Of a stretch of 64,000 nucleotides of DNA, positions 7,626 through 43,811 are shown one piece after another (position 1 is the first letter of the stretch; each line of letters begins with the position of its first letter). This DNA is from Pseudomonadota bacterium (GTDB taxonomy: Bacteria > Pseudomonadota > Gammaproteobacteria > Thiotrichales > Thiotrichaceae), in NCBI GenBank assembly GCA_039797295.1, contig JBDKID010000003.1, positions 27,502-91,501 on the forward strand. The letters run 5' to 3'. Below the pieces are notes generated by a model, which was not told the DNA's origin, ran no database searches, and was given only the letters and a program-made list of their open reading frames with translations. A program made the position numbers and the translations under genes.

Positions 7626-9580
7626 AACGTCGGCAGCTTAAATCACCCGTTTTTCAGGGTAGACGCTTATTCTTGATGCTGACTTTGTTGGGGGTGATCG
7701 GCATTTTATTATTGCGTGCAGTATGGTTAGAAGTTTTTCAGCAGCAATGGTTACAACAACAAGCTGATAAACGCCAAATGCGCGTGGTGACGATTCCAGC
7801 CTATCGTGGCATGATTTTGGATCGTAATGGCGACCCAATGGCGATCAGTTCGCCGGTATCCTCGTTATGGTGTAACCCGCAAGACTTACTCAAAGCACGC
7901 GAAGATTTGCGCCACGAAGCTGCCGCATCTGTGCCGGATGCTAAAACCGCTGAGAAATCTGCCACCGATAAAACCAAAGATCGAGACCCCATTGATGCAT
8001 CATTAGAGCATGATCGGGCTGTGAAAAAGTTTGCGCAGTTGGAGGCGGGTTTACAGCACATCGAGGAAGAACTGGGCATGAAGTCGGGCGAATTGGTCGA
8101 AAAGCTCGAAAAAGCCAGTGATAAACAGTTTTTCTATTTGGGTCGGCAGTTGCCATTAGAAGTTGCTGATGAGATTTTGGCACTGGATTTACCGGGCGTT
8201 ACCTCAACGCGCGAATACCGTCGTTATTACCCATTAGCCGAAACCGCAGGGCACGTTGTTGGCATGACCAATATCGATGGCAATGGCATTGAAGGCATTG
8301 AGAAAGCACGCAATGACACGTTAGCGGGTAAAAATGGTAAAACGCGCGTGGTGCGGGATGCGAAAGGCAAATTAGTGGAAAGCGTGGTGCATTTGGATGA
8401 AATGCAACCCGGACAAGACGTGCAGTTAAGCATTGACCGGCGCATTCAGTATTTAGCCTACAAAGAATTAAAAACGCGCGTTTATGAACTGAATGCCAAA
8501 GCGGGTTCGGCGGTGGTATTGGATGCCCACACGGGTGAGATTTTGGCAATGGCGAATGTGCCGTCATTTAACCCCAATAATCGCAAAGACATTGATGCCT
8601 CGTTATACCGTAATCGGGCGGTAACAGATAAATCCGAACCCGGTTCCACACTGAAACCGTTAACCATTTCGGCTGCGTTAGAAGCGCGGGCAATCGGCCC
8701 TGATGTGGAAATTAATACTTCACCGGGGCGGATTAACTTTGGCAAATACGTGGTGAAAGACCCGAAAGATTACGGCTCGATTAGTTTGGCAACCATTTTG
8801 GCGAAATCCAGTAACGTCGGGGCAAGCCGTGTGGCTTTGCTCATGAGTGCACGCGATCAATGGATGTTTTTAAATCGTGTCGGATTCGGACGTGTACCCG
8901 ATGCTGGTTTTTCTGGTGAGTCCTCCGGTCAGTTAACCAGTTACACCACTTGGGGTATGGTGGATCGGGCTTCGCACGGTTATGGTTACGGTTTATCTGC
9001 CAGTTTGTTACAAATTACCCATGCTTATGCCGCATTGGCAGCGAATGGCATGATGGTGCCCGCTACGATTTACAAATTGGATAAACCTGTCGTTGGTCAG
9101 CAAGTAATGAGTGCCGATAATGCTCGTGCGGTTGTACGCCTGATGGAAGCCGTCGTGCAAAAAGGCGGAACGGGCGAGAAAGCCATGATTGAAGGTTATC
9201 GGGTTGCGGGCAAAACGGGGACAGCATACAAATACATCAATAATGCTTATCGCAATGATCGTTACATGACCAGCTTTATTGGGGTTGCACCAGCAAGCCG
9301 TCCGCGTTTGGTGGTTGCCATTCAAATTGATGAACCCAAAGTGGAGGACAGTGGTGGTCGTGCTGCGGCACCTGTGTTTTCCAAAGTGATGGGGGAAGCT
9401 TTGCGTTTGCTTGATATTCCACCTGATAATTTACCTGATGTGAAACCTGTGCAACAACAGCAACAATTAATGACTACACCAACCGCGCCCACTCAAGCGG
9501 TGTCGCCATCCTCAACAGCCGTCGAACCGCCTGTGCCGATGGGGGCAGCGGCAACCAGCAAGGGAGGGACGGTAGAATGA
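7622..9580 (+). CDS. ftsI: Penicillin-binding protein 3 FtsI, with N-terminal insertion and C-terminal tail
   Basis: RGMILDRNG, EPGSTLKP (SxxK), SSNVG (SxN), KTGT motifs. Confidence 0.97.
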   Translation: MKRRQLKSPVFQGRRLFLMLTLLGVIGILLLRAVWLEVFQQQWLQQQADKRQMRVVTIPAYRGMILDRNGDPMAISSPVSSLWCNPQDLLKAREDLRHEAAASVPDAKTAEKSATDKTKDRDPIDASLEHDRAVKKFAQLEAGLQHIEEELGMKSGELVEKLEKASDKQFFYLGRQLPLEVADEILALDLPGVTSTREYRRYYPLAETAGHVVGMTNIDGNGIEGIEKARNDTLAGKNGKTRVVRDAKGKLVESVVHLDEMQPGQDVQLSIDRRIQYLAYKELKTRVYELNAKAGSAVVLDAHTGEILAMANVPSFNPNNRKDIDASLYRNRAVTDKSEPGSTLKPLTISAALEARAIGPDVEINTSPGRINFGKYVVKDPKDYGSISLATILAKSSNVGASRVALLMSARDQWMFLNRVGFGRVPDAGFSGESSGQLTSYTTWGMVDRASHGYGYGLSASLLQITHAYAALAANGMMVPATIYKLDKPVVGQQVMSADNARAVVRLMEAVVQKGGTGEKAMIEGYRVAGKTGTAYKYINNAYRNDRYMTSFIGVAPASRPRLVVAIQIDEPKVEDSGGRAAAPVFSKVMGEALRLLDIPPDNLPDVKPVQQQQQLMTTPTAPTQAVSPSSTAVEPPVPMGAAATSKGGTVE

Positions 9581-11106
9581 TGTCTCTACGCCTTTTATTA
9601 GCCGATGTGGTTGCCGATCTTGCCACTGTGCCCGATGTGGCCGTCACAGGGTTGACCTTGGATAACCGTAAAGTGCAAGCGGGCATGGCATTCGTTGCCC
9701 TGCGTGGTACGCGCCAACACGGTTTGGCTTATGCCACAGCGGCTGTCGAAGCGGGTGCTGTGGTCGTGCTGTATGAGCCAGAAAATGTTTTGCAACAGCC
9801 ACCCTTGTCGGTCGAGTCTGTACCCGTGCCTGCATTACGCGAGCATTTGGGTACACTCGCCGACCGTTTTAACGCCGCGCCGAGTGCCGACTTATTCATG
9901 GTCGGGGTAACGGGTACGGATGGCAAAACGTCTGTCACGCACTTCATTGCTGAAGCTTTAAACGCTAAGTTGGATGCCAACACCGTCACCGCTACCGCAG
10001 GGGTGATTGGTACGTTGGGTTTGGGTTGCCCCGGTCAATTAGCTCCGGCAACGCACACCACGCCAGATGCATTAACCGTACACACTGTCTTAGCCGAATT
10101 ACGGCAGGCTGGATTGCAAAGTGTGGCAATGGAAGTGTCGTCGCACGCTTTGGATCAAGGGCGTGTGAATGGCATTCGTTTTGATGTTGCGGTGCTTACC
10201 AATTTGACGCGCGACCATTTGGATTATCACGGTACGGTCGAGGCGTATGCGGATGCCAAACGTCGTTTGTTCCATTGGCAAGGTTTACGCGCGGTGGTGT
10301 TGAATCTTGATGATGCATTCGGGCAGCAATTGGCGCGTGAAGTCGCTGAATCTACGCCGGGTGTGCAAATCATTGGGTATGGTGTGGGCAATCCTGCTGC
10401 TTATCCCGCTAATACACTGGTGGCAACGGCTGCGGTTTTTGATCACAGCGGTATTCGTGCGCAAGTCACTAGCCCGTGGGGAACGGGAACATTACAAGCT
10501 CCGGTATTGGGGCAATTCAATCTGCATAATTTGTTAGCCGCGCTGGGCGTATTGGTCGCGCAAGGCATTCCCATGAGCGAAGCTTTGCAACGTTTACAGC
10601 ACGTTTGGGTTGTACCGGGACGTATAGAGCGCGTTATTGCTGATCCAGTCGCTGAACGGGATAACGAGCGATTGGTGGTGGTGGATTATGCCCACACCCC
10701 AGCAGCGTTAGCGCAGGTATTAAAAGCAGTGCGCGTGCATACCCGTGGTCGCTTGCTGTGCGTGTTTGGCTGCGGTGGGGATCGGGATCGTGGTAAGCGT
10801 CCGCTCATGGCACAAACCGTGGAAGCGGCGGCGGATGTGGTGATTGTGACCGATGATAATCCGCGCACTGAAAATCCACAGCAAATCATGGCGGATATTC
10901 TGCAAGGCTTCCAGAACCCCGCGCAGGTGTTGGTGGAACATGACCGTGCCGCCGCGATTCGTTTAGCGATTACGCAAGCGCAAGTGGGCGATACGGTGCT
11001 GATTGCAGGCAAAGGGCACGAAACCGTGCAAATTCTCGCGCATGGCACTGTGCCATTCGATGATCGTGTACAAGCTGCTTTGGCATTACAGGAGTGTGGC
11101 GCATGA
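9577..11106 (+). CDS. murE: UDP-MurNAc-Ala-Glu:meso-DAP ligase MurE
   Basis: GVTGTDGKTS, HTTPD, MEVSSHAL, DYAHTP, DDNPR (DAP-type). Confidence 0.97.
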   Translation: MMSLRLLLADVVADLATVPDVAVTGLTLDNRKVQAGMAFVALRGTRQHGLAYATAAVEAGAVVVLYEPENVLQQPPLSVESVPVPALREHLGTLADRFNAAPSADLFMVGVTGTDGKTSVTHFIAEALNAKLDANTVTATAGVIGTLGLGCPGQLAPATHTTPDALTVHTVLAELRQAGLQSVAMEVSSHALDQGRVNGIRFDVAVLTNLTRDHLDYHGTVEAYADAKRRLFHWQGLRAVVLNLDDAFGQQLAREVAESTPGVQIIGYGVGNPAAYPANTLVATAAVFDHSGIRAQVTSPWGTGTLQAPVLGQFNLHNLLAALGVLVAQGIPMSEALQRLQHVWVVPGRIERVIADPVAERDNERLVVVDYAHTPAALAQVLKAVRVHTRGRLLCVFGCGGDRDRGKRPLMAQTVEAAADVVIVTDDNPRTENPQQIMADILQGFQNPAQVLVEHDRAAAIRLAITQAQVGDTVLIAGKGHETVQILAHGTVPFDDRVQAALALQECGA

Positions 11107-36234: not shown

Positions 36235-36269
36235 ACTTGTGCCGCAACGGGACTAGAAAGAAGTCAAAC

Positions 36270-37655
36270 ATGTTCGAGAATTTAAGTGAACGTCTTTCGC
36301 AGACGGTAAAAAAGCTACGCGGTCAAGCACGTTTGACCGACGACAATATTAAAGACGCGCTGCGTGATGTGCGAATGGCTCTGCTCGAAGCCGATGTGGC
36401 TTTGCCGGTAGTGCGCGAGTTCACCAACCGTGTGCGTGAGCGAGCCATTGGTCATGAGGTGTTAGAAAGCCTCACACCGGGGCAAGCATTTATCAAGGTC
36501 GTCAATGACGAGTTAGTCACCATTATGGGTAAGGCTAATGAAAATTTGTCATTGAATGCGCAACCGCCCGCCGTGATCTTAATGGCAGGTTTGCAAGGTG
36601 CGGGTAAAACCACCACGGTGGGCAAGTTAACCCGTTTCTTGAAAGAACGTCAGAATAAATCCGTCATGGTTGCCAGTTGTGACGTGTACCGTCCGGCGGC
36701 GATTAAACAGTTAGAAACCATTGCGGGACAAACGGGCGCGGTATTTTTCTCCAGCGAAGCCACACAAAAACCGGTCGACATTGCCAATGCTGCGGTAGCC
36801 GAAGCCAAGCGCAAGTACATGGATGTGCTGATTATCGACACGGCGGGGCGTTTGCACATTGACGCGCTCATGATGCAAGAAATTCAAGCCATCCATGCCG
36901 CAATTAACCCGATTGAAACGCTGTTCGTCGTTGACAGTATGACGGGGCAAGATGCGGCGAACACGGCGAAAGCTTTTGGTGATGCATTGCCTTTGACTGG
37001 TGTCGTACTGACGAAAGCGGATGGTGATGCACGCGGTGGTGCGGCATTGTCGGTGCGTCAGATTACGGGTAAGCCGATTAAATTCATTGGTGTCGGCGAA
37101 AAATTAGATGCTTTAGAACCTTTCCACCCAGACCGTATGGCCTCGCGGATTTTGGGCATGGGCGATGTGTTGAGCTTGATTGAAGAAGCGCAACGCAAAG
37201 TCGACCATAAAAAAGCGCAAGAACTCGCGAAAAAGTTGAATAAAGGGAAGGGATTCGACTTTGAAGATTTGCGTGATCAGATGCAGCAAATGCTCAAAAT
37301 GGGTGGCATGAGTGCATTGATGGATAAATTACCGGGAATGGGTAATGTGCCATCACATTTGAAAGAACAAGCGAATGATAAAGAAGTTCGCCGCATGATT
37401 GCGATTATTAATTCCATGACATTGGAAGAGCGGCGTAATCCCGATGTTATCAAGGCTTCGCGTAAACGGCGGATTGCGGCAGGTTGTGGTTTGCAAGTGC
37501 AAGATGTGAATCGTTTGTTGAAACAGCATCAGCAAATGAGTCGCGTGATGAAGCAGTTCTCTAAAGGTGGTGCATTACGCAAACTGATGGGGAAAATGGG
37601 TAATAAAATGCCACCAGGGGGCGGTTTTCCACCGATGGGCGGTTTCCCAGGTTAA
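36270..37655 (+). CDS. ffh: Signal recognition particle protein Ffh
   Basis: MFENLSERL, GLQGAGKTT, DTAGR, DGDARGG, Met-rich M domain. Confidence 0.99.
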   Translation: MFENLSERLSQTVKKLRGQARLTDDNIKDALRDVRMALLEADVALPVVREFTNRVRERAIGHEVLESLTPGQAFIKVVNDELVTIMGKANENLSLNAQPPAVILMAGLQGAGKTTTVGKLTRFLKERQNKSVMVASCDVYRPAAIKQLETIAGQTGAVFFSSEATQKPVDIANAAVAEAKRKYMDVLIIDTAGRLHIDALMMQEIQAIHAAINPIETLFVVDSMTGQDAANTAKAFGDALPLTGVVLTKADGDARGGAALSVRQITGKPIKFIGVGEKLDALEPFHPDRMASRILGMGDVLSLIEEAQRKVDHKKAQELAKKLNKGKGFDFEDLRDQMQQMLKMGGMSALMDKLPGMGNVPSHLKEQANDKEVRRMIAIINSMTLEERRNPDVIKASRKRRIAAGCGLQVQDVNRLLKQHQQMSRVMKQFSKGGALRKLMGKMGNKMPPGGGFPPMGGFPG

Positions 37656-37870
37656 TTTAATTGATTTTTGAAGCATTTAATGGGCTATCTTCGATTATTT
37701 GTGATAATCGGGGTTTGCCTGTTCTTTTATCTAGTTGTATGATGCGCATCGTCCAGAGATTTCCGTGAGTCATACGAACGGGGTCGATGCATTCAATCTC
37801 TTGGATGTTAGTGCATTGTTTGTGCTAATGTGGCTTTTCCCTTTCCTTATATCGTGAGAGAGTTTGAACT

Positions 37871-38170
37871 ATGAAAATGAAATCGCAATTTGCTATCGCT
37901 GGCTTGCTGTTCGCTGGTCTGTTGGCAACTGGTTGCAGCCAACAACAAGCTGCTGGTAGCCAACAACAAGCTGCTGGTAGCCAACAACAAGCTGCTACTC
38001 CAGCTCCTGCTGCTCCTGCTGCTCCTGCTGCTCCAGCACACGCTGCTCCAGCTCCACGTCCAGCTGCTCCAGCTCCAGTAGTTCCTCATGTTAAAGCTAA
38101 AGGCAACTACAAAGGTCCAGTCGCAATTGCGCCAGCTTCTAAAGCTGCACTGAAACAATACCAAAAGTAA
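37871..38170 (+). CDS. Small lipoprotein paralog 1 (99 aa; SQQQAAG repeats, Pro/Ala spacer, VKAKGNYKG module, ends QYQK)
   Basis: Lipobox LATG-C22, SD GAGAG, narrow codon choice (GCT, CCA/CCT, CAA, AAA), own terminator. Confidence 0.9.
   Translation: MKMKSQFAIAGLLFAGLLATGCSQQQAAGSQQQAAGSQQQAATPAPAAPAAPAAPAHAAPAPRPAAPAPVVPHVKAKGNYKGPVAIAPASKAALKQYQK
37937..37996 (+). repeat. 21-bp tandem repeat (2 full + 18 bp) encoding SQQQAAG
   Basis: AGCCAACAACAAGCTGCTGGT at 37937 and 37958, partial at 37979. Confidence 0.95.
38003..38029 (+). repeat. 9-bp tandem repeat x3 encoding APA
   Basis: GCTCCTGCT at 38003, 38012, 38021. Confidence 0.9.
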
Positions 38171-38212
38171 TTGTTTCGTGGACACGGCAACCTTTTAGGA
38201 TGCAGTAGCCAG

Positions 38213-38244
38213 AAAGCCTCTTGAACTCAAGAGGCTTTTTTTTT
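38213..38244 (+). terminator. Intrinsic terminator after lipoprotein 1
   Basis: AAAGCCTCTTG-AACT-CAAGAGGCTTT followed by T tract. Confidence 0.92.
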
Positions 38245-38393
38245 GCCTTGAAGTATGGAATCTGTACACCATTGGTCGGCGTTTAAGTGCGTTTTGTGCT
38301 ACATATTGGTGTGTAGCAATTAAGGAAATGACGCTTAAACGCTACACTGTATAAACTTACTGACTTTTTAGGCAATAAATTGAGGCTAAAGCC

Positions 38394-38714
38394 ATGGAAA
38401 TGAAGTCCAAATTGACTCTTGCGGCGTTATTGTGTATCGGTTTGCTGGCGACTGGTTGTAGTCAACAACAAGCTGCTATGGGTAGCCAACAAATGACACA
38501 ACAGCAAGCTTGTGACTGCAATAAAGAAAAACCAGTTACACCACCACCTGCTGTGCCTGTGAAACCACATTTACCACCGCCGGTAAAACGTCCACCACCA
38601 CCAGTGCAACCTGTTACCCCTGTCGTTCCTAAAGTGAAAGCCAAAGGTAACTACAAAGGTGCAGTGGCGATGGATCCATCTTCCAAAGCCGTGATGCAGC
38701 AATATCAGCATTAA
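38394..38714 (+). CDS. Small lipoprotein paralog 2 (106 aa; CDC, polyproline spacer, VKAKGNYKG module, ends QYQH)
   Basis: Lipobox LATG-C22, SD GAGG, clear paralog of 37871 gene. Confidence 0.9.
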   Translation: MEMKSKLTLAALLCIGLLATGCSQQQAAMGSQQMTQQQACDCNKEKPVTPPPAVPVKPHLPPPVKRPPPPVQPVTPVVPKVKAKGNYKGAVAMDPSSKAVMQQYQH

Positions 38715-38730
38715 TCGCTAGGTATTGCAT

Positions 38731-38763
38731 AAAACCCTTGCCGTTAACGACAAGGGTTTTTTT
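38731..38763 (+). terminator. Intrinsic terminator after lipoprotein 2
   Basis: AAAACCCTTG-10 nt-CAAGGGTTTT plus further Ts. Confidence 0.92.
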
Positions 38764-38981
38764 GTTTGAATTTTTACGAAAATCCATGCAACCTATTGCA
38801 TGGCATGACTTTGCACCGCATGGACGTTTATGCCGTGAATTAATGAGTGGTGTCGCTTAACGGCTTTTCACAAGGATTTGTGCTAAATTTGACCATTGTG
38901 TCCTATGAAGTCAATGTGACTTCTTTGCTACACTTTAATTGGCCGAGTGCTATCCCTTTAACAATGAAAGAGACCAAGACG

Positions 38982-39371
38982 ATGAAAATCAAATCTCACC
39001 TCACGCTTGCAACCCTGATCGTAGCTGGCATGTTCGCTACTGGCTGCCAACAATTAAGCCAACAAACGGCTGGTGCAGGTCAACAACAAACTGCTGCTCC
39101 AACTGAAACGAAGAAAGATGATGTGAAGCAACCTGTTGCTACTGGTAATGCACATACTCACCCAGCAGTTCCAGCTTGCACGAACTCCATTACACATAGC
39201 CATCCGTTCACTGATCCAAACCATACTCATCACTATAGCTGCAAACCGGGCGTAGCTCACAAAGGTGCAGGTCCTGCTGTTCCTCATGTTAAAGCGAAAG
39301 GCAACTACAAAGGTCCAGTCGCGATGGATAAAGCTTCTCAATCTGCATTGAAACAATATCAACAAAAATAA
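38982..39371 (+). CDS. Small lipoprotein paralog 3 (129 aa; His/Cys module, VKAKGNYKG module, ends QYQQK)
   Basis: Start reassigned from 38847 to 38982 so the lipobox FATG-C again falls at Cys22. Confidence 0.9.
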   Translation: MKIKSHLTLATLIVAGMFATGCQQLSQQTAGAGQQQTAAPTETKKDDVKQPVATGNAHTHPAVPACTNSITHSHPFTDPNHTHHYSCKPGVAHKGAGPAVPHVKAKGNYKGPVAMDKASQSALKQYQQK

Positions 39372-39432
39372 TCTTGTTGGTACGCGCAGTACATTGTTAA
39401 TCTTGTGAAAAGTTGACAATAAGTTTTGCATG

Positions 39433-39466
39433 AATGCCCAACCGCGATGAGGTTGGGCATTTTTTT
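39433..39466 (+). terminator. Intrinsic terminator after lipoprotein 3
   Basis: AATGCCCAACC-7 nt-GGTTGGGCATT plus T tract. Confidence 0.92.
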
Positions 39467-39614
39467 GGTTGAAATTCAAGATAAGGCAAATTACGCTAGG
39501 CATCTTTGGGAACTTATGGGCATGTTCTCAAGTCAGGGCTGTTATAAGCGTGAACCTGGCAGGTCTTCACCTATCGAGTGTTCTTCTGGTTTAACTACAT
39601 CAAGTGCAAGTTTC

Positions 39615-40868
39615 ATGAAAAAGTTTTTTAGCCTAGTGCTTTTGCTTACTGCCTCTATGTTGATGCCTTCGTTGGCATCTGCCGAGGTTTGGCCTAATGA
39701 GAATACGTGGGATGATTCCTGGGAAGCTCGTTACCGTGATTGGGTGCGTACCAGTTGGAAAGATGACATTTTCATGGATTCATCTAAGCCCATTTATTAC
39801 AAGTTCGAGAACGATTGTGCTGACGCTGTTTACATGATGCGTTTAATCTTCTCTTACGAGAACCGCTTACCATTTGCGATTAACAACCGTGATAAAGCGG
39901 GCAAGTTGATCAACAATAGCCTGAACAGTTGGGACAGCCTCGCGCCACCACAGCGGGTTCGCCAGTTCATGAATTATGTTGCTGACATGACCAGCAGTGC
40001 TTCTTTACCGAGTGATACTTACCCGGTTGCACTGAATGACATTAAGCCCGGTGATATTTATGTAGCACCCGGTGTGCATTCTTATCAAATCGTAGAAGTC
40101 ACGGATGCTGGGATTGCTGAGGTCATGGCTTCGACGACACCTAAACAAGCACGTTATTTGCTGCGCACCCCATCATTCCCGTTCTATATTCCTGAAGATA
40201 AACATTTAGGTGATGGTTATCGTCGTTTCAAAGCACCGCAGAACATAATGAAACCTGCGAATGCGCAACCGGGTTATAGCGAAGAGCAGTTCCAATTGGC
40301 GGCAGAGTTGAATGGTGATTACGTTGCATTTACTGACATCATTTCTAAAAAATTAGGACATCGTGAAGAACGTCCTGATGAGAAAACCCAACGCTTATTG
40401 TTAGCATTGTGCATGTACGCGAATGATCGCAGTGTGTATGTCTATGACGCTTTGTTCTATCTGCAAAAGATTCGTAATGAAGGCCGCCATTGCATGAATG
40501 CGAAAGAATACGACGATCATTCCACCCCAGGGCGTGATAAGCGCTTGAAAATGTTCTTCGATTCCATTCGTCGTCATTTAGATCGAGTTGGACGTTTTGA
40601 TCCACGCTCACAACCTGCACGTTGGGCAAAAGCGGTATTCTCTAATGATCAACCACCACCACAAGAAATGCAGAATTTGAATAATTTCTGTCAGGTGCAA
40701 ATGACGTTGGTCGATGAAGATGCACATGAGCCTAACTATTTCATGTCATTGCGTGAATTACGGCAAAATGTTGATGCGGGTACATTGAGTTCCGATCCAC
40801 ATGCGTCATTAGAATATCGTTGGGGTATTGTGAAAGAACCGTTTGTCGCGGACTGTCCAACTTACTAA
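39615..40868 (+). CDS. Secreted hypothetical protein (417 aa) with putative papain-like Cys/His pair
   Basis: Signal peptide MKKFFSLVLLLTASMLMPSLASA from ATG 39615; DCADAVY, IKPGDIYV and GVHSYQIV motifs; function inferred. Confidence 0.75.
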   Translation: MKKFFSLVLLLTASMLMPSLASAEVWPNENTWDDSWEARYRDWVRTSWKDDIFMDSSKPIYYKFENDCADAVYMMRLIFSYENRLPFAINNRDKAGKLINNSLNSWDSLAPPQRVRQFMNYVADMTSSASLPSDTYPVALNDIKPGDIYVAPGVHSYQIVEVTDAGIAEVMASTTPKQARYLLRTPSFPFYIPEDKHLGDGYRRFKAPQNIMKPANAQPGYSEEQFQLAAELNGDYVAFTDIISKKLGHREERPDEKTQRLLLALCMYANDRSVYVYDALFYLQKIRNEGRHCMNAKEYDDHSTPGRDKRLKMFFDSIRRHLDRVGRFDPRSQPARWAKAVFSNDQPPPQEMQNLNNFCQVQMTLVDEDAHEPNYFMSLRELRQNVDAGTLSSDPHASLEYRWGIVKEPFVADCPTY

Positions 40869-40884
40869 ACGGTATTAAGCCTAG

Positions 40885-40915
40885 GTTTCTCCCAGTTCTT
40901 TATGCTGGGAGAAAC
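40885..40915. other. Perfect 11-bp hairpin downstream of the 39615 gene
   Basis: GTTTCTCCCAG-9 nt-CTGGGAGAAAC, no U tract. Confidence 0.6.
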
Positions 40916-41012
40916 AACCAAGTCTTAATAACGATAACGATAGATTTAGTAATGGTTGAGCGGGCTTTTGGTGCATTTGTGATGTTCTGTTGTTAAAACA
41001 GGAGTGGGGTAA

Positions 41013-41723
41013 ATGAGTAGTTTCTTAAAAATCTCAGCCTATCTGGTATTCGGGCTGGGTCTTGGTATCGTCAGTGGCTGTTCCAGTCAAAATCAGAAAA
41101 CTGAACAAGCTGTTGCAACACCGATGCAACGTTCTAGTCCAGCTCGGACGAGTGTAGCAACACCAGAACGCTTGTCTTATGCCGCATTGGATCGTCTACG
41201 GCATCGTGTGGTTTACAATGGCACGTACATGCCGATTGCTTATCCAAATGGTGATGTGCCGGGCAATATTGGTGTTTGTACGGATACGGTGATTCGTTCG
41301 TATCGTAAGTTAGGTGTGGACTTACAGCGTTTGGTGCATGAAGACATGGAACGCAATTTCTACGCTTATCCTAACTTGCCAAAATGGGGATTGAATGCGC
41401 CCGACTCGAATATTGATCACCGCCGAGTACATAATTTGAAGGCTTACTTCACACGTCATGGGGGGCGACTGCCTGTGACAGGTGAGCCTAGCGATTACCG
41501 CCCCGGCGACTTAGTAACGTGGAGTCTGGGTGGCGACCAAGAACACATCGGGATTGTGGTGGATCGTAAATCATCAGCCGATCCTGACCGTTACTTGATT
41601 GTGCACAACATCGGTGAGGGTGAAAAAATGGAAGATGTGCTGTTCCAGATGCCAATTTCGGGGCATTACCGTTACTTCCCCGGCTACGTACCTTCCGCTG
41701 CGCAATACGCTGCTGCTAATTAA
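41013..41723 (+). CDS. DUF1287 (YijF-like) lipoprotein, NlpC/P60-like Cys/His motifs
   Basis: Lipobox VSG-C23; YPNGDVP...GVCTDTVIRSYR, DSNIDHRRV, PGDLVTW, HIGIV, VHNIG. Confidence 0.88.
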   Translation: MSSFLKISAYLVFGLGLGIVSGCSSQNQKTEQAVATPMQRSSPARTSVATPERLSYAALDRLRHRVVYNGTYMPIAYPNGDVPGNIGVCTDTVIRSYRKLGVDLQRLVHEDMERNFYAYPNLPKWGLNAPDSNIDHRRVHNLKAYFTRHGGRLPVTGEPSDYRPGDLVTWSLGGDQEHIGIVVDRKSSADPDRYLIVHNIGEGEKMEDVLFQMPISGHYRYFPGYVPSAAQYAAAN

Positions 41724-41760
41724 TTCACTGCTCATTATTTCTAGCACAGAATGCTATCAG

Positions 41761-41790
41761 AAAGCCTCCGCTGCGTCGGGGGCTTTTTGT
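41761..41790 (+). terminator. Intrinsic terminator after DUF1287 gene
   Basis: AAAGCCTCCG-6 nt-CGGGGGCTTT-TTGT. Confidence 0.8.
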
Positions 41791-41905
41791 TGCAGTGCTG
41801 TGTAATCAATACTTCACTTTTTCTGAAATTAACGTACAATCTCGCGTTTACTTCGGGGTGGGGTAGTCTGCCCTCTGTTTACTAGATTTATTTTAAGGTT
41901 TTTCT

Positions 41906-42160
41906 ATGGTCAACATCCGTCTGGCTAGAGGTGGCGCGAAAAAGCGTCCATTTTATCACATCGTTGTCAGTGATAAACGCAAACCACGTGACAGTGGTTA
42001 TATCGAACGTATTGGTTATTTCAACCCGGTAGCGCGTGGTCAAGAAGTGCGTCTGCACATCGAACAAGACCGTGCAAGCTATTGGTTACAATGTGGCGCA
42101 CAGCCAACTGAACGCGTCGCGAAGCTGCTGAAAGAAACAGCAGAAAGCGCGGCAGTGTAA
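41906..42160 (+). CDS. rpsP: 30S ribosomal protein S16
   Basis: [21 protein letters not shown]...ERIGYFNP. Confidence 0.99.
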
Positions 42161-42186
42161 GTTAAGGCAACGGCTGTTTTTGACTC

Positions 42187-42705
42187 ATGCCTCAGTCTAG
42201 TACCCAAGCTGATATGATTACACTAGGAAAAATTTCTGGTGTGTTCGGTGTTAAAGGCTGGGTTAAAGTGTTTTCGCATACCGAGCAACGTGAATCCATC
42301 TTGGCGTATAGCCCGTGGTTTTTGCAGATCGCTGGTGAGTGGAAACCGTATGAAGTCAAAACCGGTCAAGTGCAAGGCAAAGGCATTGTTGCTCAGTTGC
42401 AGACTGTCGACGACCGTGACCAAGCGCAAACTTTGGTTGGTTGTAGCATCGCGATTCCACGCGAGCGTCTCCGATCATTAAGACAAGATGAGTACTACTG
42501 GGCTGATTTGATCGGCATGGAAGTGGTCAATCTTGCTGGGTTTGCGTTTGGGAAAGTCGATTCCCTGTTTGAGACGGGTTCTAATGATGTATTAGTCGTG
42601 CGTAGTGATGTGGAGCGTTTAGTTCCGTGGATTATGCATGAAGTCATTAAATCTGTCGCATTGGATGAACGTCGCATCGTGGTGGACTGGGATCCGGATT
42701 TTTAG
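42187..42705 (+). CDS. rimM: Ribosome maturation factor RimM
   Basis: [41 protein letters not shown]. Confidence 0.98.
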
Positions 42706-43457
42706 TGATGCGCTTTGATGTCGTGACGCTGTTCCCAGAACTGGTGGATGCTGTCATTCAAAGTGGTGTTACAGGACGTGCCGTTAAACGCGGCATTATT
42801 CAGTTGCAACACTGGAATCCGCGTGATTATGCGCAAGATGTTCACCGTACTGTGGATGACCGTCCTTATGGTGGTGGACCGGGAATGGTAATGAAAGCGG
42901 AAACGCTATTACCTGCCATTCGCGCTGCGCGACAGCACAATTCGGGCAAAGTCGTTTATCTCAGCCCACAAGGTGTACCACTAACGCAGGCTTTGGTGAC
43001 AGAACTTGCGGCAGAAGACGGTTTAATTCTGCTGTGTGGGCGTTATGAGGGTATTGACGAGCGTATTATTACGTTAGAAGTCGATCTGGAGTGTTCTATC
43101 GGCGACTATGTACTCAGTGGTGGTGAATTGGGTGCAATGGTGCTAATTGATGCAGTCACGCGCTTATTGCCGGGTGCATTAGGACACAACGAGTCAGCGG
43201 CGCAAGATTCTTTTTGTGCAGGATTGCTCGACTGCCCACACTATACCCGACCGGAAGTGTTAGAAGGTCTGAGTATTCCCGCCGTGTTAAAAAGCGGCAA
43301 TCATGCAGACATTGCTCGCTGGCGCAATAAGCAAGCACTTGGCAGAACATGGCAGCGCAGGCCAGAACTATTGCAGGCAAAACACCTGACGGCTACCGAA
43401 CGTGTATTGCTAGCTGAATACATAAACGAGTTTGACAGAAGTAGTAAACTTCAGTAG
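42705..43457 (+). CDS. trmD: tRNA (guanine-N1)-methyltransferase TrmD
   Basis: [38 protein letters not shown]. Confidence 0.98.
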
Positions 43458-43466
43458 AGGATTATC

Positions 43467-43811
43467 ATGAACGCGATTATTCAACAGCTTGAACAAGAAC
43501 AAATGACGAAAACCATCCCTGATTTCAACCCAGGCGATACCGTTATTGTTCAAGTACGTGTTAAAGAAGGTGACAAAGAACGTCAACAGGCTTACGAAGG
43601 CGTGGTTATCGCCAAGAAAAATCGTGGTCTGAACTCTGCTTTCACTGTACGTAAAATGTCTTACGGTGAAGGCGTAGAGCGCGTATTCCAAACTTACAGC
43701 AATAGCATTGCAAGTATTGAAGTGAAACGTGCGGGTGATGTGCGTCGTGCGAAACTGTACTACCTGCGTGGTCGTACTGGTAAATCTGCACGTATCAAAG
43801 AAAAAGTTTAA
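43467..43811 (+). CDS. rplS: 50S ribosomal protein L19
   Basis: [27 protein letters not shown]. Confidence 0.99.

Follow-up and report, generated by a model that had tools for sequence, protein, structure and literature searches.

A lipoprotein family of the Thiotrichaceae with a tail apparently derived from PG_binding_1 and a terminal lysine that varies among homologs

We examined three tandem lipoprotein genes in a 64,000-nucleotide stretch of DNA (contig JBDKID010000003.1, C3:27502-91501; hereafter the window) from the genome of a Thiotrichaceae bacterium (GCA_039797295.1; 3.58 Mb in 59 contigs). The genes, here called P1, P2 and P3, lie on the + strand between ffh (36237-37655) and the gene for a secreted 417-amino acid protein, here called sec417 (39615..40868, + strand). 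P1 (37871..38170) encodes 99 amino acids, P2 (38394..38714) encodes 106, and P3 (38982..39371, with an alternative start at 38964) encodes 129. The signal peptide of each consists of a basic N-region, a hydrophobic core and a lipobox of the form [LVI][ASTVI][GAS]-C, which reads LLATG-C22 in P1 and P2 and MFATG-C22 in P3. After the lipobox, all three proteins have a Gln/Ala/Pro-rich stretch followed by a C-terminal block common to the three. P1 begins this mature part with C-S-Q-Q-Q, P2 has a Pro-rich (PPxV) spacer containing CDC, and P3 carries an additional His/Cys module. A sequence-only reading of the window had reported the C-terminal endings as KQYQK (P1), QQYQH (P2) and KQYQQK (P3), which we confirmed from the open reading frames (ORFs) and their translations. 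From these endings it had proposed that P1 and P3 are joined to peptidoglycan through the terminal lysine, in the manner of Braun's lipoprotein (Lpp), with a disordered spacer replacing the Lpp coiled coil and with P2 left unbound.

The shared C-terminal module, delimited from alignments of the family (A1 and A2), spans P69-K99 of P1 (38075..38167, + strand; PVVPHVKAKGNYKGPVAIAPASKAALKQYQK), P76-H106 of P2 (38619..38711, + strand) and P98-K129 of P3 (39273..39368, + strand). Position 38081, at which the range singled out by the sequence-only reading starts, corresponds to Val71 of P1 and falls within this module. Each gene is followed on the + strand by a hairpin and a T run. Strong intrinsic terminators were found 3' of P1 (38211..38250, with a 13-bp stem) and 3' of P3 (39432..39472), and a hairpin 3' of P2 (38731..38766; AACCCTTG...CAAGGGTT), with a loop exceeding the length limit of the scan, was read off the sequence by eye.

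None of the three proteins could be assigned to a described family: comparison of P1-P3 with Pfam and NCBIfam found no family model and returned just low-complexity noise (Anophelin, BamI and the YidC N-terminus), and a profile search of the PDB with the family gave 5cyb (E 0.011) as its sole match, which is another Q/P-rich lipoprotein N-terminus and uninformative. A word-indexed search of 5.8 billion proteins recovered 55 relatives, all named ones coming from Thiothrix, and homologs of P1 at 55-75% identity were found only among Thiothrix-type genomes. All 55 are annotated as hypothetical except three (P0006, P0007 and P0024) that bear the JGI label 'PBP1b-binding outer membrane lipoprotein LpoB'. 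We set this label aside as probably an artefact of the low-complexity linker, as it applies to 3/55 matches and the proteins contain no LpoB domain. When 1.84 billion cluster representatives were searched exhaustively with a profile, just 101 proteins were returned, and the lower-ranked part of that list includes tails resembling ordinary PG_binding_1. By six-frame search, the family is present in 81/81 sampled Thiotrichaceae genomes and 8/8 genera, usually as 2-6 tandem copies per genome. Judged from these searches, it is an uncharacterized lipoprotein family confined to the Thiotrichaceae.

Family members are built from a lipidated Cys with a conserved S-Q-Q-Q, a variable Gln/Ala/Pro-rich spacer and a tail of 30 residues; some copies also carry one His/Cys module or two. 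The tail has the consensus P-x-V-K-A-K-G-x-Y-K-G-x-V ... M-x-Q-Y-Q-x. Within its V-K-A-K-G-N-Y-K-G segment in P1, K75, K77, G78 and G82 show no variation across the family (alignments A1 and A2), and A76, Y80 and K81 are, like lipobox residues G21 and C22 and the following Q24 and Q26, conserved in at least 90% of sequences (A1). The last residue, by contrast with these internal positions, may be K, R, Q, H, Y, E or N. An AlphaFold2 model of P1 made with the family alignment (mean pLDDT 63) is coil except for the signal helix (residues 5-21) and a second helix (88-98), and contains no long alpha-helical coiled coil of the Lpp kind. The spacer is accordingly modeled as disordered, Gln/Ala/Pro-rich and free of coiled coil. 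Given that no Asp occupies position +2, the lipoproteins are predicted to be sorted to the outer membrane.

Two local features distinguish individual copies. In the spacer of P1 (37938-38000), a 21-bp unit, AGCCAACAACAAGCTGCTGGT, encoding S-Q-Q-Q-A-A-G, occurs three times head to tail (GSQQQAA x3), and such a repeat could make spacer length variable. The His/Cys-rich module of P3 (39153..39242, + strand; HTHPAVPACTNSITHSHPFTDPNHTHHYSC; delimited in alignment A1) follows the pattern HxHPxxPxCTxSxTHxH-x6-HxHxYxC, which is single in P3-type copies and double in the larger relatives found in other genera. Neither Pfam nor NCBIfam has a matching model, and the module looks like a metal-binding or disulfide-stapled insert.

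For 44 genomes from 8 genera, we tallied the last residue of each copy. In the genus to which the window belongs (g1), 26/39 copies end in Lys, the others ending in Arg (10), Gln (2) or His (1), and 15/16 genomes have at least one Lys-ended copy, the exception being a truncated locus. The Lys-ended fraction differs among g1 copy types: 14/15 for the P3 type, 9/16 for the P1 type (with 5 Arg and 2 Gln) and 0/5 for the P2 type, whose orthologs in other genomes end QQYQR. No copy ends in Lys in the 11 genomes of the sister genus g5 (0/29, with endings such as QQYQQ, QQYQY and KQYRQ), and in the six remaining genera 2/16 do so, the rest ending in R, H, Q or E. The conserved feature at the end of the protein is the pattern ...[ML]-x-x-Y-[QKR] followed by 1-4 variable residues, and even within g1 orthologs swap terminal K, R and Q. 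Because it is common only in g1, the terminal lysine is, on the sequences compared, a trait of the genus and not of the family, and it is not required for whatever function the family has in common. Arg and Gln lack the epsilon-amino group that forms the bond in Lpp. The Lpp-like covalent link, which the sequence-only reading had tied in advance to conservation of the terminal lysine among homologs, is therefore contradicted, at the level of the family, by the lack of this lysine throughout the g5 copies and in most copies of the six other genera.

A narrower form of that proposal would confine the covalent link to the genus, with Lys-ended copies attached and those ending in R, H or Q free. 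The g1 counts favor it, since terminal Lys occurs in just 7.3% of long ORFs and 13% of lipobox ORFs of the genome. Of the 8,676 stop-to-stop ORFs with 90 or more amino acids, three have the ending Y-[QRK]1-2-K, and all three belong to this lipoprotein family; the endings of P1-P3 are not independent events, because the three copies are paralogs. The counts from g5 and the six further genera, the K/R/Q swaps in g1 and the internal position of every invariant residue of the tail all argue against it.

As to the enzymes that such a link would use, the sequence-only reading was correct that MurE is of the diaminopimelate (DAP) type, as the ORF at 9580-11106 in the dcw cluster has the DNPR motif and scores above cut-off on models of meso-DAP-adding MurE, and also that the window holds no L,D-transpeptidase, no YkuD gene being found there. 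A search of the whole genome, which it had recommended, located three YkuD genes elsewhere. Two of them encode periplasmic proteins with a signal peptide and the active site SHGCIRM, and together with the meso-DAP-type MurE and the absence of Lpp these proteins are in keeping with a terminal-Lys link. Both are nearest the ElsL model (152 and 133 bits, below its cut-off), however, and reach just 22-35 bits on models of the E. coli L,D-transpeptidases, far below the cut-offs. The third (L003:1243-2040, contig C2) is weak and divergent, with the active-site motif TSGCTAM and, at its N-terminus, a membrane or lipobox-like segment, and matches no NCBIfam model. YkuD genes number 2-5 per genome in g1 and mostly 1 in other genera; the direction of this difference fits a covalent link in g1, but we rejected the counts as support, as the signal is too weak and is confounded by phylogeny.

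In Dickeya, one lysine at the C-terminus is both required and sufficient for attachment, and the Lpp box tolerates substitutions (PMC12274547). According to the same study, Lys is the last residue of more than 20% of the periplasmic proteins and lipoproteins of E. coli, and a terminal Lys alone therefore predicts little (PMC12274547). Genomes with few L,D-transpeptidases are not those known for protein tethering (PMC12729407); Coxiella and Legionella have ten or more such enzymes, compared with three in this genome.

Like Lpp (PF04728), P1-P3 are small, separately transcribed lipoproteins with their own terminators, a Tyr-(basic/Gln)-Lys ending is seen in two of the three, and the genome combines meso-DAP peptidoglycan with YkuD proteins. 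Unlike Lpp, the family has no coiled coil and no conserved terminal Lys, and its tail is homologous to PG_binding_1. A second search that had been suggested, for lpp, found no PF04728 match in P1-P3 or anywhere in the genome, with the E. coli control detected. The OprI-type lipoprotein family PF11839 likewise gave no match, but neither did the control genomes, which makes this result uninformative.

Evidence on the origin of the tail came from distant members of the family. Three of them (P0051, P0053 and P0054) have the layout of P3, in which a lipobox and a Gln-rich start precede a His/Cys module and a terminal tail, and they match both PG_binding_1 (PF01471, best E 4.5e-9) and PG_binding_2 (PF08823). 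BLASTP aligns P3 with P0051 over the full length (E 5e-27). Their tails read ...L-Q-x-K-L-K-A-K-G-Y-Y-K-G-P-I-D-G-x-x-x-x-x-T-R-x-A-L-Q-R-F-M-x-R, and further intermediate forms of this PG_binding_1-scoring type occur in five other genera. We compared three alignments by hhalign: 24 core tails of which none scores on Pfam (A2), 12 intermediate tails (A4), and 11 genuine PG_binding_1 domains, taken from unrelated proteins encoded in Thiothrix genomes (A3). The core tails match the intermediates (97.7%, E 2.3e-12) and the intermediates match the genuine domains (98.0%, E 2.8e-13). The link between tail and domain rests on these intermediate forms, because the direct comparison of A2 with A3 is weak (10.9%, E 0.0028), its alignment being in register on helix 2. 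From the two strong comparisons and the helix 2 register, it follows by transitive homology that the 30-residue tail is, as far as profile alignments can tell, a degenerate, truncated PG_binding_1 domain.

Set beside PG_binding_1, the tail is in register with helix 1-loop-helix 2, retaining G-Y-x-G and then S/T-x-x-A-hydrophobic-x-x-[FY]-Q. It differs in that the alignments show helix 3 to be missing in every member, and that in core forms, including P1-P3, proline-rich sequence replaces helix 1, so that just the loop and helix 2 are left. By this alignment, the Tyr-Gln ending is the F/Y-Q that closes helix 2 of PG_binding_1 and not an Lpp box, and its likeness to the Tyr-Arg of Lpp is explained by descent from that helix.

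An independent indication of what the tail does comes from a fourth family copy in the genome (L036:603-956, contig C27). This protein of 117 amino acids has an ordinary signal peptide without a lipobox and an N-module that contains Cys; a Pro-rich hinge connects these to the tail ...VVPKVKAKGNYKGPVALDPASSAAMQPYKK. The neighboring gene (L036:1213-1815, contig C27) encodes a paralog in which the N-module is joined to an OmpA domain (PF00691, 5e-19), one of 10 OmpA-domain matches in the genome. The two proteins are 68% identical (E 2e-22) over the 60-residue N-terminal part that comprises signal peptide and N-module; past the N-module, the fourth copy has the KAKGNYKG tail and its neighbor has the OmpA-type peptidoglycan-binding domain. 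The neighbor also matches the Bordetella OmpA model NF045787 over its full length (1.7e-34, below cut-off). The fourth copy has the Cys-containing N-module and Pro-rich hinge of this neighbor, which resembles the RmpM and Bordetella OmpA type of periplasmic anchor, and differs from it in that the KAKGNYKG tail stands in place of OmpA_C; the likeness to Neisseria RmpM is one that we presume. The same pairing of tail and OmpA paralogs recurs in at least two other genomes of the genus. That the tail fills the slot of a known peptidoglycan-binding domain supports, at the level of domain architecture, contact with the wall, and is silent on whether the contact is covalent.

The most consistent neighbor of the lipoprotein array is sec417. 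An ortholog (54-80% identity) adjoins the array in 12/12 loci from 5 genera, also at loci that lack ffh in their vicinity. In g5 the gene is located inside the array; coordinates place the two next to each other in many more genomes, from all eight genera. sec417 is present in 79/81 Thiotrichaceae genomes (62/62 of good quality) and in none of the 149 further families of the class that were sampled. Cys68 (in DCADA), a PGD motif, His155 and Glu169 are invariant, as are four further Cys in a helical C-terminal domain. The AlphaFold2 model (pLDDT 78.7, pTM 0.74) puts Cys68 and His155 at the beginning of a helix and of a strand, respectively, and Glu169 on the strand that follows, a Cys-His-Glu order of secondary structure that is the papain/NlpC-P60 order. 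All 20/20 aligned members match DUF4846, which has been proposed as an NlpC/P60-like wall-modifying domain (PMC10318531), at scores below the gathering score. A Foldseek comparison of the model with the PDB gave nothing significant (best E 0.67), and a sequence search of the PDB gave nothing usable. We provisionally regard sec417 as probably a papain/NlpC-P60-like fold, as modeled, followed by the helical C-terminal domain.

Downstream of sec417 lies a gene for a DUF1287 lipoprotein (41013..41723, + strand; PF06940, E 2.9e-64), a Cys-His-His family of NlpC/P60 type (PMC10318531). An hhalign comparison of sec417 with this neighbor was not significant and aligned just the PGD motif. The DUF1287 gene adjoins the module in g1, g3 and g5 (3/5 genera) and is not found within the flanks of about 6 kb in g2 and g4. 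As a whole, the array, sec417 and the DUF1287 gene form an insertion between ffh and rimM-trmD-rplS (36237-43811), which is kept in g1, g3 and g5; in g2 and g4 the lipoprotein/sec417 module is located elsewhere.

In the reading we favor, to which we assign a probability of about 0.5, these lipoproteins are flexible connectors or adaptors, probably anchored in the outer membrane, that make non-covalent contact with peptidoglycan and act together with the neighboring Cys/His enzyme. The lipid would hold the protein in the outer membrane, the extended proline-rich spacer would span the periplasm, and the basic C-terminal module would touch peptidoglycan without a covalent bond, dock sec417, or both, so that the lipoproteins would connect membrane to wall or serve as adaptors, much like Pal or RmpM. 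As in Pal, a lipobox and a disordered linker lead to a C-terminal wall-binding element, for which we propose non-covalent binding; Pal differs in having a folded OmpA_C domain of about 100 amino acids where these proteins have a 30-residue PG_binding_1 remnant, and P1-P3 have neither a PF00691 match nor a Tol context. The surroundings are wall-related, with the array beside sec417, often a DUF1287 protein as well, and a genome without Lpp. What was observed is the architecture, the origin of the tail, the unconserved terminal lysine, the exchange of tail and OmpA domain, the synteny and the restricted distribution; that so reduced a module binds peptidoglycan and that the lipoproteins have a functional link with sec417 we only infer. 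The earlier proposal of a tether survives in part: wall contact through a disordered spacer that replaces the Lpp coiled coil fits the evidence, and the Lpp-like covalent link through the terminal lysine, with P2 unbound, does not.

Several observations weigh against a wall-binding tail. In core forms the hallmark loop DGxxGxxT has lost its Asp-Gly through a 2-residue deletion. P1-P3 do not match PF01471 even at E <= 10, and in a six-frame scan of the genome the tails in the window gave none at E <= 1. A PG_binding_1 domain would be expected to form a three-helix bundle with two DGxxGxxT-type loops, whereas all members of the family stop after helix 2 and AlphaFold2 gives a single helix. Because a loop and one helix are unlikely to fold as a three-helix bundle, retained affinity for peptidoglycan is an assumption. 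The strongest conservation, in KAKGxYKG and C-S-Q-Q-Q, is specific to the family and atypical of PG_binding_1, and its pattern hints at a function beyond or other than wall binding. Outer-membrane sorting, in turn, is inferred solely from the E. coli +2 rule.

In another reading, the tail is a docking peptide only, binding sec417 or another periplasmic enzyme and no longer peptidoglycan, with the lipoproteins serving as outer-membrane-anchored activators, inhibitors or localizers that reach through the wall on a long linker like LpoA, LpoB and NlpI. Loss of the hallmark loop speaks for this reading, strict synteny and co-distribution with sec417 agree with it, and a disordered linker ending in a short helix is typical of such regulators. 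Like LpoA, LpoB and NlpI, these proteins would combine a lipid anchor in the outer membrane and a long disordered linker with a partner enzyme whose target is peptidoglycan; those proteins have folded effector domains, however, and here there is just a short tail with no homology to them. The paralog pair in which the tail replaces an OmpA-type domain is not next to sec417, three to six paralogs per single-copy enzyme would be unusual for a regulator, and the intermediate forms retain a scoring PG_binding_1 segment. We consider a pure docking role doubtful, while granting it a real chance.

It is rather unlikely, in our judgment, that sec417 is instead a dedicated ligase or transpeptidase that couples the lipoproteins covalently. 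Such an enzyme might, in a transglutaminase-like reaction, join the invariant Lys of KAKGxYKG to peptidoglycan or to the N-terminal Gln of other copies, or it might recognize the C-terminal module as a sorting signal in a sortase-like one. The lipoproteins and sec417 would then be a dedicated envelope-coupling system that ties the outer membrane to peptidoglycan, or builds a cross-linked lipoprotein mesh, with no need of L,D-transpeptidases or a terminal Lys, and to that system we give the same low credence. The two partners share a narrow distribution and adjacency, extending in g5 to a position inside the array; the invariant Cys68, His155 and Glu169 stand in papain order, with Cys68 beginning a helix and His155 a strand in the AlphaFold2 model; and the family-specific conserved residues are Lys (K75, K77 and K81) and Gln (Q24 and Q26). 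NlpC/P60-type enzymes include the transglutaminase Tgl (PMC10318531).

There are also precedents for covalent attachment at other positions, since internal-Lys links to meso-DAP are known from LimB27 (Lys21) and from the tail of Lpg1810. OutB of Dickeya, LimB27 of Coxiella and Lpg1810 of Legionella are, like the present family, gammaproteobacterial envelope proteins with Lys-bearing tails (we claim no sequence similarity), and they illustrate that a covalent peptidoglycan link needs neither the Lpp fold nor a terminal Lys. Against coupling by sec417 stand the weak fold assignment, with DUF4846 below threshold and neither Foldseek nor hhalign significant, and the fact that adjacency fits an enzyme-regulator or enzyme-anchor pairing equally well. 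The genus-limited, Lpp-like link through the terminal lysine is, on the counts and precedents given above, the least probable of the alternatives and in our view improbable.

As a general caution, a terminal Tyr-x-Lys on a lipoprotein is no evidence for Braun-type anchoring unless the Lys is conserved among homologs. How the outer membrane is attached to the wall in bacteria without Lpp is partly known, and recent work keeps adding lineage-specific solutions. The connector or adaptor role that we favor for this Thiotrichaceae family would add one more, in which the wall-contacting element is a 30-residue PG_binding_1 remnant on a long proline-rich spacer, paired with the unstudied protein sec417. 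If it were true that sec417 couples the lipoproteins covalently, the family would represent a new tethering chemistry.

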